Below, one piece after another: positions 2,295 through 62,169 of a DNA stretch of 64,000 nt. Below the pieces are notes generated by a model. It saw only the letters and a program-made list of their open reading frames with translations, was not told the DNA's origin and did not search any database. The DNA is taken from contig CAYJSN010000008.1 of NCBI GenBank assembly GCA_964373125.1, forward strand, positions 4,244 to 68,243, given 5' to 3'. Every line of letters begins with the position of its first letter. Position 1 is the stretch's first letter. The position numbers and the translations under genes were made by a program. Source of the stretch: an uncultured Nitrosopumilales archaeon. Lineage in GTDB: Archaea > Thermoproteota > Nitrososphaeria > Nitrososphaerales > UBA213.

Positions 2295-2660
2295 CTATAC
2301 CGAGTTGTGTCTGAAGTGGCAGTGTTCCTCCATGCAGCTCCTGGAACAGAACAAAGCTTCGCAACTCTCTTCCCTGCAGGGAATCGGCTCCCTGTCGTTG
2401 AAGACTGCATTGCAGTAAACACAGAACGATTCAAGCTCTGGATAATTTTTATTCAGGTGATCCCCGCAGTTGCGCTTCTCCCTGAACCAGACGACCTCGA
2501 TCCTCCGCTTCTCGGCATAGGTCAGGACCGTATCGTAGGCCTCGTAGTAGCCCTCCGCCATGAACTGGCGTATGAAGGACTTGCCGTTCTTCCTGAAGCA
2601 GGCTAGCCACTTCTCCGGCAGGATGAGCTCGTCCTCGTTCTGCGCTATCTTCTTGCTCAA
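2295..2660 (-). CDS. Hypothetical Cys/His-rich zinc-binding protein (MYND/HIT-like spacing)
   Basis: 121-aa ORF in a GC3-rich frame. C-terminus CVYC-x11-C-x4-C-x4-C-x3-C-x3-HCH-x2-H. Confidence 0.6.
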   Translation of the reverse strand: MSKKIAQNEDELILPEKWLACFRKNGKSFIRQFMAEGYYEAYDTVLTYAEKRRIEVVWFREKRNCGDHLNKNYPELESFCVYCNAVFNDREPIPCREESCEALFCSRSCMEEHCHFRHNSV

Positions 2661-50131: not shown

Positions 50132-52969
50132 TTGTGGGACAGCGCTCAATCCAAGCCGAGGCAGGACATAGGCAACTACATAAGGATCGGACTCTTCGCG
50201 CTCATAGCCCTGGTAATTTTTGGCATAGTGAGCAGCCAGTCGGTCGTGATCCTGCTCAACGTTACCGAGTTTCAGGACCTGTTCGTCAAGCCGCTCTACT
50301 ACGCGATACTCTCCGGGCTAATCCTTGCATCGATAGCCCTGATCAGGGTGGACGTACGGCACCGGGAATCCATGGTCTGGTGGATCATCTCCGCCGGCAT
50401 CTCTTTTTTGAGAAGGGAGGCGCCTGAACAAGGCAAGGCTTCTTTCAGGTACCGCGATTTCAAGTTGGGCAGGGGACATTTTGCGCTGTGGCAGGTCACA
50501 AAGGTTCTGCTCCTTGCCCCGATCTTCAGCAACCTGATGTTCGGAATGGCAACCCAGTACGTGCTGGACGGCAAAGAGCTAGGACTTTCATCGCTCTCCC
50601 AGATATTCTACCTGCCGTTCATAACGTCGCCAAACCCTGCCATCGCCGAAGAGCTGGTGCTGCCGATGATCCCGTCGCTCACGCTGCTGATACCCCCGGT
50701 ACTCGGCGCGATCGGGATCAGGCTCGTGCTCTACGTCGGCGTGCGCAACATAGCCCACATAATCTCCGGCTACCTTTCCGATGCGGCGGAGGGCAGGCCA
50801 AGGTTCCTCTTCTACATAGCCGTGCTTGAGATGATAGTAGGCACAGGTCTCTTCTGGTCGTCCTTCAACATGTTCTTCCAGTCGAACATAGACTACAACA
50901 CCAAGTATGCAATAGCCGGCACCGCGCTCCTAGGTGCTGCATTTGTGGCATGGTCGCTGATAGACAGGAGGAAGTCCAAGGTGATACTCATGTTCCCGTC
51001 AAGGAAGAACATCTACCTGCGCCTCCTCACCATAATCTCTATAGCCGTTGTGGTGGGCTCGATAATGGCCGTGAACAACAGCATAGCCGATGCGAGGAAG
51101 ATCGAGTGGCTGGGGCCGTACACTGCCCAGCAGATCGTGGTCAACAGGTACTTTGCGGACCTCGACCAGGTCAAGGAGGTGAACTACGACATCGAGCTCT
51201 TCGCGACCCCGCCAAGCAGCACCAAGGAACCCACGGAAGAAAGTAAGGAGATACTCTCAAAGGTGCGGCTCTGGGACTGGAGCGCGGCCTTTGCCAAGCT
51301 GAAGCCCGAGATCGGGCTCATACCGTATGTTGACTTTTACGACTCGGACATAATCCGGTTCAACGGCACGCTGTACTGGAGCGCCGCGATGCAGCCGATA
51401 CTTCCGTCCAGCGTAACCGCCGAGAACCAGTGGTACTCTGAGCACCTGGTCTACACCCACGTGCCGAACGGGTTCCTGATGCTCGACGCCCACGACGGCG
51501 ACATAGTGAACAGCAATAACTTCTTCGATCAGAGAAGGATATACTACGGGGAGGGCGGGCTGCTCAGCGAGGTCTGGTCCGCCTACCCGGCCGACAGGCA
51601 GACGAGCGACGAGCTTGACGGATACTTTTACAACGGCGATGGCGGGATAACGGTTCCCCCGCCCCTGAGCTGGATGTTCGAGCCCAACTTCCTGCTCTCT
51701 TACCCGGATGAGGCCATACACATAATGCGCTACAAGGACGTGCACGACAGGATGCAGCTGCTATATCCATACTTTGAGTATGACTTTGGGAACAGACGCG
51801 TGGACGTGCTTCCCGTCACCGACGGCCCCAACACATACTGGCTGATGCCGCTCATTGTGCGGCTGGATACCGACCGTGTGCCGTGGAGCGCCGACAACCC
51901 GATGTACAGGCTGGTTGGCTACATACTGATCGACACCTACGACGGAAGCCACCAGATACTGGTAAAAGGCGAGGACTTCTTCACGGAGATTTTCGTTGAT
52001 CAGTACCAAGAGCACGTCACGCGGGAGATCCCGTCCTGGCTTCACAACCAGCTGAGGTACCCCGAGGAGCTGTTCTGGTGGAAGGTAAACATGTACAACT
52101 TCTACCACGTGACCGACACATCAACATTCATAGTCGCAAAGGAGTTCTACGAGATACCCTCCGGGCTGACCCCCTACTACATATTCGCCAAGCCGCAGGG
52201 CTTCGAAAAGATCGAGTACATCTCGCTCCTCTCCCTCGAGCTGAGGGGAGCTGCGGGGAGGAACCTTGCCGGCTACATGGTGGTGCGGAATGACTATCCC
52301 TACGATGGCGATCTGGTATTCTACGAGGTTTCGCTCGAGTCGGAGGTGAAGCTGCTAGGACCCAGCGCCGTCAGGGAGGCGCTCGACAGGGACCCGGATT
52401 TTGCTCAGCTGAAGACCCTGCTGAGGAACCCGAGAATCGGCGATAACATACTCTACAGGATAGGCGACCGCGATGTCTACTTCATACCCGTATACACGGC
52501 CGGGGCCGGTGGCGTGGTAACCCAGCTGGGCACCATCGCGGCCGTGGGCGCGACCTTCACGGGCGAGTATTACGTTGGTCTGGGCGATACCGCTGAGAAG
52601 GCCTTCAACGCCTACCTTGCTAAGCGTATCGGCATTAAGGCGCCTCCGGGCCTGCCGACGCTGCTTGACCGTGATGCAAAGGTACGCAGTCTCATGCAGC
52701 TGTTAGAGGAGAGAGGGGTCGATGTTGCGAGGCCTGCGTCGATATCGGTCCCGCTGACATTCTTGGAGGGAGAGCTGGAGTACGGCGACGAATCTGATTT
52801 CGAGGATGTGAAGCTCGGGATCGACGAGTTTATCAACACCTGGGTGAAGGAGGGCGGGGCCAAAAGGATTCTGGCCTGGGAGGAAGAGGAGGCGATCAAC
52901 TTCGGCGTTGCGACTGTTGTAGACGGCATAACCGAACTGCACTACGTGGCGGTCAAGGTAGGCAGATAG
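50132..52969 (+). CDS. UPF0182-family large membrane protein
   Basis: 945 aa, TTG start. About 7 N-terminal TM segments plus a large soluble part with LRYPEELFWWKVNMYNFYHV, RNLAGYMVVRNDYPYDG, GDNILYRIGDRDVYFIPVYT blocks typical of UPF0182 as I recall it. Confidence 0.75.
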   Translation: MWDSAQSKPRQDIGNYIRIGLFALIALVIFGIVSSQSVVILLNVTEFQDLFVKPLYYAILSGLILASIALIRVDVRHRESMVWWIISAGISFLRREAPEQGKASFRYRDFKLGRGHFALWQVTKVLLLAPIFSNLMFGMATQYVLDGKELGLSSLSQIFYLPFITSPNPAIAEELVLPMIPSLTLLIPPVLGAIGIRLVLYVGVRNIAHIISGYLSDAAEGRPRFLFYIAVLEMIVGTGLFWSSFNMFFQSNIDYNTKYAIAGTALLGAAFVAWSLIDRRKSKVILMFPSRKNIYLRLLTIISIAVVVGSIMAVNNSIADARKIEWLGPYTAQQIVVNRYFADLDQVKEVNYDIELFATPPSSTKEPTEESKEILSKVRLWDWSAAFAKLKPEIGLIPYVDFYDSDIIRFNGTLYWSAAMQPILPSSVTAENQWYSEHLVYTHVPNGFLMLDAHDGDIVNSNNFFDQRRIYYGEGGLLSEVWSAYPADRQTSDELDGYFYNGDGGITVPPPLSWMFEPNFLLSYPDEAIHIMRYKDVHDRMQLLYPYFEYDFGNRRVDVLPVTDGPNTYWLMPLIVRLDTDRVPWSADNPMYRLVGYILIDTYDGSHQILVKGEDFFTEIFVDQYQEHVTREIPSWLHNQLRYPEELFWWKVNMYNFYHVTDTSTFIVAKEFYEIPSGLTPYYIFAKPQGFEKIEYISLLSLELRGAAGRNLAGYMVVRNDYPYDGDLVFYEVSLESEVKLLGPSAVREALDRDPDFAQLKTLLRNPRIGDNILYRIGDRDVYFIPVYTAGAGGVVTQLGTIAAVGATFTGEYYVGLGDTAEKAFNAYLAKRIGIKAPPGLPTLLDRDAKVRSLMQLLEERGVDVARPASISVPLTFLEGELEYGDESDFEDVKLGIDEFINTWVKEGGAKRILAWEEEEAINFGVATVVDGITELHYVAVKVGR

Positions 52970-60188: not shown

Positions 60189-60569
60189 ATGCCGGACCTT
60201 GAGGAGCTGACCGCGCTTCTTAGCGAGAAGGCAGAGACCAACAGGGTGCTGCTGGTGGCTAGGAACGACATCAATCTAAACTCGAAGGCCCAGAACACGA
60301 TCTACGTCCTTGAGGTTGAGGAGGGCGGCCGCGCCGCGGGCGGACGAGGCGCGGGGTTCGGCCAGAGGAGATTCGGAAAGATCTACGGGTTCGAGTATAA
60401 GGATGGAACCTGCAGGAAGGTCATTGAGACAACAGAGAATGTCGGCGACCTTGATTCAGGATACGTCGTTAGGCTGCCCGTAACCCTTCCCGACGGGAGG
60501 GAGATCATGGCATCGTGCTCGATCAACCCCCAGCTCGTGCAGGAATACGACCAGAGGTTCAGACGATGA
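60189..60569 (+). CDS. Hypothetical protein with Gly/Arg-rich loop
   Basis: 126-aa ORF. GGRAAGGRGAGFGQRRFG segment. No recognised domain. Confidence 0.5.
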   Translation: MPDLEELTALLSEKAETNRVLLVARNDINLNSKAQNTIYVLEVEEGGRAAGGRGAGFGQRRFGKIYGFEYKDGTCRKVIETTENVGDLDSGYVVRLPVTLPDGREIMASCSINPQLVQEYDQRFRR

Positions 60570-60645: not shown

Positions 60646-60804
60646 ATGAACGAGGCCGCCGACAGCGAAATCCAGCAGGAGGTGGAGGGCCTGCTGCGGG
60701 CCGACAGGGTGCTTGACGAGCTCTCGAACATGCGGGTCACATTCAGAAGGACCAAGAGCCGCGAAGAGCTCGAATACGAGCAGGGAGACATCGGCGGAGG
60801 ATGA
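60646..60804 (+). CDS. Possible 52-aa acidic micro-protein
   Basis: MNEAADSEIQQEVEGLLRADRVLDELSNMRVTFRRTKSREELEYEQGDIGGG. GC3-rich frame. The listed minus-strand ORF 60603-60791 is Ser-rich antisense-looking. Confidence 0.3.
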   Translation: MNEAADSEIQQEVEGLLRADRVLDELSNMRVTFRRTKSREELEYEQGDIGGG

Positions 60805-60818
60805 AGTTGGGATAAAGG

Positions 60819-61388
60819 TCAGCGCCGCATGTGGTTGCGTATCACGTGGGTTCGCAATTCCTCGTCGCTTCTGAACTCTATGTTGCAGGTGGAGCATACG
60901 TATGCGATCGGGCCTGCCGGCACTTCCGGCCCGGCCTCTTTCTTCGCGATCTCTTCCTTCGAGGGAGCCGGTTTCTCAAACGCCGGTGCTGCACTGACGC
61001 TCCTTATCGCCAGCGCCCCGCCTATCACGCCCAGCACCACGCCCGGCAGTATCGCTATGTTCAGGAATCCCGCGCCGGCCATGCTCATCAGCGCCAAGAT
61101 TATGATCATGATGCCCCAGCGCCTCGATTCATCGGGCCGCCTGTGCAGCAGGAACGACAGGATGAGGATGGCCGCGCCGGTGCTGAGGCCGGCCACAGCA
61201 TTCCTGATCTGGAACGTCCTGAACCCGGCCTCGCCCATCTCTGCCCTGAGCTGATCCAGTGTCTCGTCGGTCTCGGGCAGGCCGACGAAGATTCCCGCCA
61301 TGAATAGCGTACCCTGCCCCAACAGGATCAGTCCCGATATTGTGGAAAGGACCAGCCCGGGCGAACGCTTCCTTATCACGAATCCCAC
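60819..61388 (-). CDS. Membrane protein with C-terminal C2H2 zinc finger
   Basis: 189 aa. About 4 TM segments, Pro/Ala/Lys linker, then YVCSTCNIEFRSDEELRTHVIRNH (C-x2-C-x12-H-x4-H). Confidence 0.6.
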   Translation of the reverse strand: MGFVIRKRSPGLVLSTISGLILLGQGTLFMAGIFVGLPETDETLDQLRAEMGEAGFRTFQIRNAVAGLSTGAAILILSFLLHRRPDESRRWGIMIIILALMSMAGAGFLNIAILPGVVLGVIGGALAIRSVSAAPAFEKPAPSKEEIAKKEAGPEVPAGPIAYVCSTCNIEFRSDEELRTHVIRNHMRR

Positions 61389-61630
61389 CAGCGCATTACG
61401 ATATCCTTGCTCAATATAATCGTCTTTCGACGGCTGCCCGCATTCGCAAGATAATGACGCGTGTCGAAATTTTCTCAGAGATGAAAAGCATAATTACATT
61501 TGTTTTCAAACTGTAAATTCATTACGTGCAGCCGTGCGAACGAACCACCGCATTGGTAAAAGTTTTCTATGCTCTGGCGTCAGTTATTTTCTCTCGCACG
61601 TATAAGTACGGCCGCCCCGATTTCTGCAAC

Positions 61631-61834
61631 ATGAAGCGAAGAAATAGCCGGAGACGCGCAAGAAGACATTCCAGAGCCAGGCGACGGTCCAGCGTGGTTC
61701 GAGCGGGAGGATTTTCGATTACAAGGACAAAGAAGGGTCTGAGGATCTCGCTTTCCCTTACGAGGGACACGATCAAGTCTGCCAGTGCGAAACGGAAGGG
61801 CGGCTACACCGGCAAGGTCATGATCGCGGTATAA
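61631..61834 (+). CDS. Possible 67-aa arginine-rich protein
   Basis: MKRRNSRRRARRHSRARRRSS... from an internal ATG of ORF 61526-61834. Competing ORFs on the other strand, so coding status is uncertain. Confidence 0.3.
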   Translation: MKRRNSRRRARRHSRARRRSSVVRAGGFSITRTKKGLRISLSLTRDTIKSASAKRKGGYTGKVMIAV

Positions 61835-61917
61835 ACCCAATTTTTTATTCTATGCCATTGCCAGCAGCAGACGCTGGCACAAGAAACTACATTAGGCACG
61901 TGCAACCAATCAGCTGC

Positions 61918-62169
61918 ATGCAGAAGGAATGCTCGAAGTGCAAGAAGACTTTCGTGTGCGGCTTCGATACCGGTTCCTGCTGGTGCCAAGACCTTGAGAT
62001 TGAGAAGACCGAGCTTGAGAAGCTGAACAACAACTACGAGTCATGCCTCTGCAAGGAATGCCTCTTATCCTATGCAAAGAACTCTATGCCTTCTGTGGAA
62101 GGAGATTTTAGGACGGCCAGAGGGACGGCCGGAAACAAAGCTCAAGGGTCCAAGGCCCCAAAGTCTTAG
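61918..62169 (+). CDS. Cysteine-rich CWC-type small protein
   Basis: 83 aa from MQKECSKCKKTFVCGFDTGSCWCQDL...CLCKECL. Matches the C-x2-C...C...CWC...C-x-C-x2-C pattern. Confidence 0.55.
   Translation: MQKECSKCKKTFVCGFDTGSCWCQDLEIEKTELEKLNNNYESCLCKECLLSYAKNSMPSVEGDFRTARGTAGNKAQGSKAPKS

Follow-up and report, generated by a model that had tools for sequence, protein, structure and literature searches.

We analyzed a 64,000-nucleotide stretch of DNA from an uncultured Nitrosopumilales archaeon (GenBank assembly GCA_964373125.1, contig CAYJSN010000008.1, positions 4,244 to 68,243), hereafter called the window, and found that one of its genes, on the minus strand at 60819..61388, encodes a 189-residue protein in which a four-transmembrane (TM) domain is followed by a flexible linker and a classical C2H2 zinc finger predicted to lie in the cytoplasm. 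We consider this architecture very likely to be correct. Computed here are the architecture itself, the homology of both of its modules, the conservation of the metal ligands, and the predicted fold and topology. With respect to function, our favored reading, to which we assign a probability of roughly 45%, is that the protein serves as a membrane scaffold or adaptor whose tethered finger recruits a partner. A role as a partner recruiter, rather than as a transcription factor, is in our judgment the most likely one.

The gene and the parts of the protein that it encodes are as follows.

60819..61388, minus strand: complete coding sequence, 189 residues from GTG 61388; an alternative start at GTG 61379 gives 186 residues.
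61359..61388, minus strand: residues 1-10, basic N-terminal stretch (RKR), predicted cytoplasmic; the family mean is 3.2 K/R versus 0.2 D/E in approximately nine residues.
61278..61358, minus strand: residues 11-37, TM helix 1 by Kyte-Doolittle hydropathy; AlphaFold2 helix 10-35, with a predicted local distance difference test score (pLDDT) of ~90.
61200..61277, minus strand: residues 38-63, acidic loop or helix, predicted extracytoplasmic; AlphaFold2 helix 42-83 continues into TM helix 2.
61140..61199, minus strand: residues 64-83, TM helix 2 by hydropathy and AlphaFold2.
61116..61139, minus strand: residues 84-91, short basic loop RPDESRRW, predicted cytoplasmic, ending at a conserved Trp-Gly (W91-G92).
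60999..61115, minus strand: residues 92-130, helical hairpin of TM helices 3 and 4, Gly-rich (G105xG107 and G123G124); AlphaFold2 helices 85-106 and 111-129.
60903..60998, minus strand: residues 131-162, disordered Pro/Ala/Lys/Glu linker, pLDDT below 50 over 133-143 and 145-159.
60831..60902, minus strand: residues 163-186, classical C2H2 zinc finger (YVCSTCNIEFRSDEELRTHVIRNH), assigned by pattern, conservation, and predicted fold.
60894..60896, 60885..60887, 60846..60848, and 60831..60833, minus strand: codons of the finger ligands C165, C168, H181, and H186, respectively.

An initial annotation of the window had described this open reading frame (ORF) as carrying about four TM helices, a Pro/Ala/Lys/Glu linker, and an exact C-x2-C-x12-H-x4-H finger with a classical hydrophobic core. 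Its ORF and translation were reproduced exactly. Hydropathy yields four hydrophobic segments that match those of the annotation, AlphaFold2 yields four helices, the linker at residues 131-162 is disordered as judged by pLDDT, the finger has its core in Y163, F172, and L178, and the tethering of a finger to a polytopic membrane domain is real, since the same architecture is found in homolog clusters.

The finger reads C-x2-C-x3-F-x5-L-x2-H-x4-H, and its ligands (C165-x2-C168-x12-H181-x4-H186) satisfy the spacing C-x2-4-C-x12-H-x3-5-H. All three classical core positions are filled: an aromatic residue two positions before the first Cys, a Phe four after the second Cys, and a Leu three before the first His. 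One could argue that the protein is an ordinary DUF6114-type membrane protein whose unstructured tail contains the motif by chance and without function. Approximately 0.44 chance occurrences of the bare spacing are expected per six-frame 64-kb window, and the Pfam finger scores of the protein are sub-threshold, both of which would fit such an explanation. However, when the three hydrophobic core positions are included, the pattern occurs in 0 of 200 shuffles. Moreover, both Cys and both His are retained, down to 33% overall identity, in clusters P0005-P0007 and in all 20 complete members of our 21-sequence alignment of the C2H2-finger family (alignment A3). Among the complete members F172 is invariant, and Y163, N169, D175, E177, and L178 are at least 90% conserved; the core Leu is replaced by Met in one member (P0168), and three members of the alignment have H-x3-H in place of H-x4-H. 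Mean pairwise identity is highest in the finger (0.57), intermediate in the membrane parts (0.43-0.53), and lowest in the linker (0.15). Because the finger is the best-conserved segment and the linker is the least conserved one and variable in length, we conclude that the finger is a functional unit maintained by selection and held on a flexible tether. At the level of sequence, this conservation settles the matter and confirms that the finger pattern is genuine; the chance-motif explanation is effectively refuted by it, and we give that explanation practically no credence.

Structure prediction is in keeping with this conclusion. AlphaFold2 models the finger as a beta-beta-alpha fold, with strands at 163-164 and 171-172 and a helix at 175-185, at a pLDDT of 84-89 in the full-length model; when the finger is modeled alone, its core reaches 93-94. 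In a Foldseek comparison with the Protein Data Bank (PDB), the top 50 matches to the finger model are all classical C2H2 fingers, among them Tramtrack (probability 0.96), BCL6, CTCF, SUPERMAN, and ZNF524 (rmsd 0.4 Å over 25 columns), and the best matches have rmsd values of 0.4-1.4 Å. The domain is so small that the Foldseek E-values do not reach significance. A phmmer search of the PDB with the last 39 residues returned almost exclusively eukaryotic C2H2 proteins among the matches listed (60 of 121); the best match is HKR3, whose fourth finger likewise has H-x4-H, and one archaeal-virus C2H2 protein, 2wbt, is also present. We infer that the finger is probably a Cys2His2 zinc site.

Only one other strict C2H2-like pattern match is present in the window. 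It lies in a 121-residue ORF (2295..2660, minus strand) that ends in a Cys/His-rich stretch, CVYCNAVFNDREPIPCREESCEALFCSRSCMEEHCHFRH, which by eye bears a closer resemblance to a cross-brace zinc finger of the HIT/MYND type; this ORF has no Pfam or NCBIfam match.

By profile comparison, the membrane domain belongs to the tetraspanin-like DUF6114/DUF4064 superfamily (Pfam PF19609 and PF13273, respectively). When the C2H2-finger family was aligned by hhalign with relatives that share the membrane domain only (alignment A4), the match covered residues 2-132 with a probability of 99.7% and an E-value of 1e-26, and the window protein itself scores 90 bits against the profile of these membrane-only relatives. 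At E<=0.001, 73 of the 81 membrane-only relatives match DUF6114 and 22 match DUF4064. Both groups share a Trp-Gly that opens TM helix 3 and Gly-rich TM helices 3 and 4. A CxxC-x10-CxxC zinc ribbon follows TM helix 4 in 13 of 116 small relatives when searched by regular expression, and the Pfam families Zn_Ribbon_1/DZR are matched by 9 of the 81 membrane-only relatives. Because relatives carry C-terminal zinc ribbons, the combination of a four-TM domain, a linker, and a small C-terminal zinc module is recurrent in the superfamily. As judged from these alignments, the C2H2 finger is the Nitrososphaeria version of the superfamily's C-terminal zinc module. We found no second copy of the membrane domain within the window, and a literature search on DUF6114 turned up no publication.

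The only studied member of the DUF4064/DUF6114 family is AuxB of Staphylococcus aureus. AuxB is a DUF4064 protein, and DUF4064 has been assigned to the tetraspanin clan (PMC12505970). Cysteine-accessibility mapping has established that AuxB crosses the membrane with four helices and that its C-terminal tail is intracellular, and this tail binds the cytosolic regulator GpsB (PMC12505970). Through a Trp conserved among DUF4064 proteins, the membrane domain of AuxB forms homodimers; in an alternative pairing, it joins PknB's TM helix (PMC12505970). In the family described here, the position of W91-G92 is occupied by W in most members and by F or Y in some, and in the membrane-only relatives the W is at least 90% conserved. 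Going by the position of the Trp-Gly, W91 may be the equivalent of the dimer contact Trp86 of AuxB.

Both termini of the window protein are predicted to be cytoplasmic. The Kyte-Doolittle plot has four hydrophobic segments (residues 11-37, 64-82, 92-111, and 113-130), and AlphaFold2, using the family alignment as input, returns the four helices listed above at a mean pLDDT of 78. Averaged over the 21 members, K/R residues are clustered at the N-terminus (3.2 in approximately nine residues), in loop 2 (3.7 in approximately nine residues), and after TM helix 4 (4.3). Loop 1 is net acidic and carries a subfamily-specific motif, LGEEGFR.F.IR, in which G52, F56, and R62 are invariant; the turn between TM helices 3 and 4 is uncharged and has no K/R in any member. 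Given this distribution of K/R and an even number of helices, both the N- and C-termini are predicted to be inside, and the finger would be cytoplasmic. The linker that separates the two modules ranges from 22 to 53 residues in homologs and has no conserved motif. A Foldseek search of the PDB with the full-length model returned generic helical bundles only (best E-value 0.32).

An alternative topology with three TM helices would place the linker and finger outside the cell as an extracellular metal- or ligand-binding tail. The stretch 92-130 is indeed continuous on the hydropathy plot, and topology programs were ambiguous between three and four TM helices for AuxB as well (PMC12505970), yet experiment gave AuxB four TM helices with the C-terminus inside (PMC12505970). 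In the AlphaFold2 model of the window protein, a turn divides residues 85-129 into two helices; K/R residues follow TM helix 4, and both loop 2 and the N-terminus are basic. The reducing cytoplasm also suits a Cys2His2 zinc site better. We therefore regard an external finger as very improbable.

Approximately 25 homolog clusters have the same architecture, and all of those that can be placed belong to Nitrososphaeria, mainly to Candidatus Nitrosocaldus. A first word-indexed search found only three relatives, and a first scan of GTDB with patterns from alignment A1 found no relatives. An exhaustive profile search of 1.84 billion representatives yielded five full-architecture clusters at 50% identity (P0005-P0009), together with well over a hundred small proteins (80-185 residues) that match the membrane domain only. 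Some 29 long multi-finger proteins from the same search match in the finger only, via summed repeats, and are not informative on the family. In a second word-indexed search, a wider profile recovered 19 clusters (90% identity); NCBI names several of them Candidatus Nitrosocaldus sp. Among the one-genome-per-species representatives of GTDB, the family is present in nine genomes, all from Nitrososphaeria (several Ca. Nitrosocaldus species, Archaeon HR04, and metagenome-assembled genomes labeled Nitrososphaerales or Nitrosopumilales), and JGI metagenomes contribute nine more loci. Since a scan of IMG/VR viral contigs found no relative of the C2H2-finger family, an origin in the viral gene pool is not supported. 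The family proteins are annotated only as hypothetical or uncharacterized membrane proteins.

A different membrane-anchored C2H2 layout is encoded on a JGI metagenome contig of only 1.1 kb (3300008255, L028 190..999, protein P0138), where one N-terminal TM helix precedes four tandem fingers of the pattern Y.CPYCGA.F....EL..HI...HP. From the charge pattern around the TM helix, the fingers of P0138 could lie outside the cell.

In the mechanism that we favor, the window protein would be a four-pass inner-membrane protein of the DUF6114/DUF4064 type with both termini in the cytoplasm. Its membrane domain would self-associate, probably as a dimer, or associate with other membrane proteins, and the flexible, fast-evolving linker of approximately 30 residues would carry the finger in the cytoplasm. 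There, as a docking module, the finger would keep at the membrane a soluble partner, most likely a protein. We favor a protein partner because the finger is single, because its net charge ranges from -3 to +2 across the family with an acidic D-x-E, because it lacks basic flanks, and because of the precedents discussed below. The mean net charge is -0.9, and several Nitrosocaldus members stand at -3. The acidic D-x-E (D175 and E177) lies at the start of the finger helix and is conserved across the family, our family charge survey found no basic regions flanking the finger, and only 3-7 residues follow the last His.

A membrane-tethered nucleic-acid binder is the alternative that draws most directly on the nature of the finger, which, perhaps paired in a dimer, would anchor DNA or RNA or would regulate after proteolytic release. 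The finger is of the classical type, best known for binding DNA or RNA, and its closest sequence and fold matches are DNA-binding fingers. In addition, the finger is predicted to be cytoplasmic on a long flexible linker that could reach DNA, and the single-finger archaeal-virus protein AFV1p06 binds DNA (PMC3541406). On the other hand, the finger of the window protein is near-neutral or acidic and, as noted above, stands alone and without basic flanks. Single-finger DNA binders such as GAGA require flanking basic regions. We found neither a conserved linker motif nor, in the conserved neighborhoods of the family, a protease gene. Furthermore, relatives bear zinc ribbons, and the characterized relative AuxB uses its tail for protein binding. 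We consider nucleic-acid binding unlikely on balance. The more specific proposal that a scaffold dimer uses its two fingers to keep RNA, plasmid, or chromosomal targets at the membrane, or that the fingers are released to regulate transcription, strikes us as distinctly doubtful.

The same evidence bears on the initial annotation, which had suggested a membrane-sequestered nucleic-acid-binding or signaling protein and likened its logic to that of membrane-bound transcription factors. The nucleic-acid-binding role and that analogy are not borne out by a lone finger with a mean charge of -0.9, no basic flanks, and no accompanying protease or linker motif. The annotation had also named an external finger and non-conserved ligands as its weak points, and here it holds up: AlphaFold2 and the charge distribution place the finger in the cytoplasm, the Cys/His ligands are conserved in all complete homologs, and the structure prediction that it had proposed gives a confident beta-beta-alpha finger (pLDDT 84-94).

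We also weighed a zinc or redox switch, in which the Cys2His2 site would lose zinc reversibly under metal limitation or oxidative stress; the tail would then change conformation, and with it the interactions of the membrane domain, so that the protein would be a sensor and not an adaptor. The invariance of the thiol ligands speaks for this reading, as does the tethering of the site near the membrane of aerobic or thermophilic Nitrososphaeria. Zinc-thiolate switches occur in other membrane-associated regulators such as the ZAS anti-sigma factors, which provide a precedent, but the ZAS-type H-x3-C-x2-C motif is absent from the target sequence. Classical C2H2 sites are generally stable structural sites, and no metal-homeostasis genes were found to be conserved near the target family. 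Conservation also extends beyond the ligands to the surface residues D175, E177, and N169, which suggests a binding surface. We judge a switch of this kind to be quite improbable.

Several observations weigh against the partner-recruiting scaffold. Most characterized classical C2H2 fingers bind nucleic acids, and since a dimeric scaffold would present two fingers, the window protein could conceivably bind DNA or RNA after all. The tail of AuxB is not homologous to the finger, and no partner gene conserved across all clades of the family was found in the neighborhoods compared. The topology is supported by prediction and by analogy with a distant bacterial relative. Lastly, the direct Pfam scores of the window protein lie below the cut-offs for both modules: 23.4 for DUF4064 (cut-off 32.1) and 20.7 for DUF6114 (cut-off 27.9) in the membrane domain, and 19.5 bits for zf-C2H2_6 (cut-off 25) and 17.4 for zf-C2H2 (cut-off 25.2) in the finger. 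A lone 23-residue finger seldom scores above a Pfam cut-off, and 15 of the 21 family members match zf-C2H2 at E<=0.01.

The gene neighborhoods of the family fall into several arrangements. In Nitrosocaldales-type loci, three genes lie on one strand: a four-TM protein of 155-167 residues upstream, the TM-C2H2 gene, and a GNAT acetyltransferase 15-20 nt downstream. This triad is kept in all nine species representatives, with 51-57% identity between two Nitrosocaldales-type sub-clades. It is found at loci L004-L017 (for example, L004 5475..7089), the outer flanks of which vary between genomes, and its four-TM protein is of no known family; the 155-residue version was ruled out as a paralog of the DUF6114-like domain (hhalign, 1.7%). 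A second clade (L003 and L018-L026) lacks the triad; in ten of its loci the gene directly upstream encodes a Methyltransf_3 O-methyltransferase instead. The conserved upstream genes there (for example, L018 3513..5212) encode Alba, a 194-residue protein of no assigned function, and the O-methyltransferase. Immediately before the TM-C2H2 gene, this clade has a conserved promoter-like motif, GAGTTATATTTTTACAATGG, and the gene keeps a TATA-like element of its own. The longest-ORF calls in L018 and L023 run through the GAGTTATATTTTTACAATGG motif and are probably too long.

The window locus has neither the Nitrosocaldales triad nor the O-methyltransferase arrangement. Its features are as follows.

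61411..61420, minus strand: putative TATA-like element (ATTATATTGA); it precedes GTG 61388 by 26 nt and GTG 61379 by 35 nt.
61852..62169, plus strand: small Cys_rich_CWC (PF14375) protein, divergent from the target gene; also present in L001.
60646..60804, plus strand: small gene of 52 residues, convergent on the target gene, without a family match; a 71% identical copy lies near the L027 homolog.
60189..60569, plus strand: small gene of 126 residues, convergent on the target gene, without a family match; a 74% identical copy lies near the L027 homolog.

A tblastn search with the target protein gives a 100% match in L001. P0001, an NCBI/Logan protein of 186 residues with 99% identity to the target protein across 98% of its length, is called from the second in-frame GTG (61379), and the start codon of the window gene is thus uncertain by three residues. 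The GACGATTATATTGA motif of the TATA-like element is also kept upstream of the closest homolog (L027). This suggests that the target gene has its own promoter, in a putative role assigned from the motif, and a short or absent leader.

The Cys_rich_CWC gene is a second gene for a small Cys-rich protein and adjoins the zinc-finger gene. The intergenic region between the two (61389..61851) is unusually long, at ~460-530 nt, and has no match in Rfam; its sole ORF (61526..61834, plus strand) encodes an Arg-rich stretch of 102 residues and is not called in L001. On the other side of the target gene, the L027 version of the 52-residue gene product is 105 residues long, with an extra N-terminal and central part. 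Farther neighbors in the window encode an LLM-type oxidoreductase, a sulfite-oxidase-like Mo enzyme, and an EVE-domain protein, and a 945-residue protein encoded at 50132..52969 on the plus strand matches UPF0182 (PF03699), a large family of uncharacterized membrane proteins. The window has a GC content of ~57%, and a scan of all 64 kb found zero tRNAs and zero Rfam elements. It also encodes a thermosome, the best named matches of which are from Ca. Nitrosocaldus (78%) and Nitrososphaera viennensis (76%), and these matches place the source organism in Nitrososphaeria.

Both modules of the protein are of known kinds; their fusion is rare and conserved in a small clade of heat-loving Nitrososphaeria. 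We found no classical C2H2 finger fused to a tetraspanin-like four-TM protein in the literature searched, and a search on C2H2 fingers in ammonia-oxidizing archaea turned up only papers on acetylene (C2H2). In eukaryotes no DNA-binding module is commoner than the classical C2H2 finger, which in archaea is scarce and barely studied (PMC3541406). Here, selection has fixed such a finger in cellular Nitrososphaeria, in the place that zinc ribbons take in relatives, and the finger and ribbon tails form a natural domain-swap series for the role of small zinc modules on prokaryotic membrane proteins. Through this protein, the DUF4064/DUF6114 family also becomes open to study from the archaeal side. 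Should the finger bind nucleic acid, it would represent a new kind of archaeal regulator; as a tethered module, it would be the first archaeal C2H2 regulator bound to a membrane and, outside eukaryotes, an early case of C2H2 fingers put to regulatory use.

Compared with eukaryotic TFIIIA/Krueppel-type fingers, the finger of the window protein matches the consensus (F/Y)-x-C-x2-C-x3-F-x5-L-x2-H-x3-4-H exactly, has the same predicted beta-beta-alpha fold, and has HKR3, PRDM9, CTCF, ZNF524, and SUPERMAN among its best eukaryotic PDB matches. Unlike the eukaryotic arrays, it is single, lacks a TGEKP linker, is acidic or neutral, scores weakly in Pfam (17-19 bits), and sits on a polytopic archaeal membrane protein. 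AFV1p06, from a crenarchaeal virus (PDB 2LVH), is likewise a single classical-type finger from the archaeal world, and the soluble protein binds zinc and DNA; no homolog was found in Thaumarchaeota in that study (PMC3541406). It differs from the window protein in being soluble, in having a C-terminal structural extension (a loop, a helix, and a third strand), and in using Glu as its fourth ligand. We do not place the window protein in the AFV1p06 family: only 3-7 residues follow the last His in its family, 2LVH is not among the phmmer PDB matches listed for the finger (60 of 121), and the scan of IMG/VR viral contigs found no relatives. The prokaryotic Ros/MucR fingers have the spacing C-x2-C-x9-H-x3-4-H within a globular domain of ~58 residues, and the window protein, with a spacing of x12 and a structured part of ~27 residues, does not belong to them.

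Membrane-bound transcription factors such as ToxR/CadC and SREBP/ATF6 resemble the window protein in presenting a potentially nucleic-acid-binding module on the cytoplasmic face of a membrane. Unlike in them, we found neither a basic or multi-contact DNA-binding domain nor a cleavage site that is conserved, and no protease associated with the protein. With a linker of 0.15 identity and variable length, and no protease in the conserved neighborhoods, it lacks the marks of a transcription factor released by proteolysis.

Closer parallels are found among membrane proteins with small C-terminal modules. The zinc-ribbon proteins of the DUF6114/DUF4064 type (for example, P0013, P0026, P0029, and P0120) have, like the window protein, four TM helices, a short linker, and one C-terminal zinc module, which in their case is a Cys4 ribbon (CxxC-x10-CxxC) with a fold unlike the beta-beta-alpha finger. 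The small membrane proteins of the DUF6114/DUF4064 superfamily, to which AuxB belongs, share with it a homologous four-helix membrane domain with Trp-Gly at TM helix 3, Gly-rich TM helices 3 and 4, and a variable cytoplasmic C-terminal tail that serves as the output module; they differ from it in that its tail ends in a classical C2H2 finger and its loop 1 has the subfamily-specific motif. AuxB and its partners GpsB and PknB are bacterial, and the present analysis does not indicate counterparts of these partners in the lineage of the window protein. Finally, in CdpC of Haloferax volcanii, the membrane anchor of FtsZ1, a long disordered linker connects a membrane-binding domain with a zinc-finger domain, and the latter binds FtsZ1; CdpC-like proteins are absent from Thermoproteota except for one singleton (bioRxiv 10.64898/2026.07.16.738847). 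CdpC is an analog only, unrelated in sequence to the window protein, but its logic is the same: a membrane part, a disordered linker, and, at the C-terminus, a zinc-finger domain for a cytosolic protein. If the finger described here binds a protein, it would add to the evidence that archaeal zinc fingers serve as membrane-proximal adaptors, as in CdpC.

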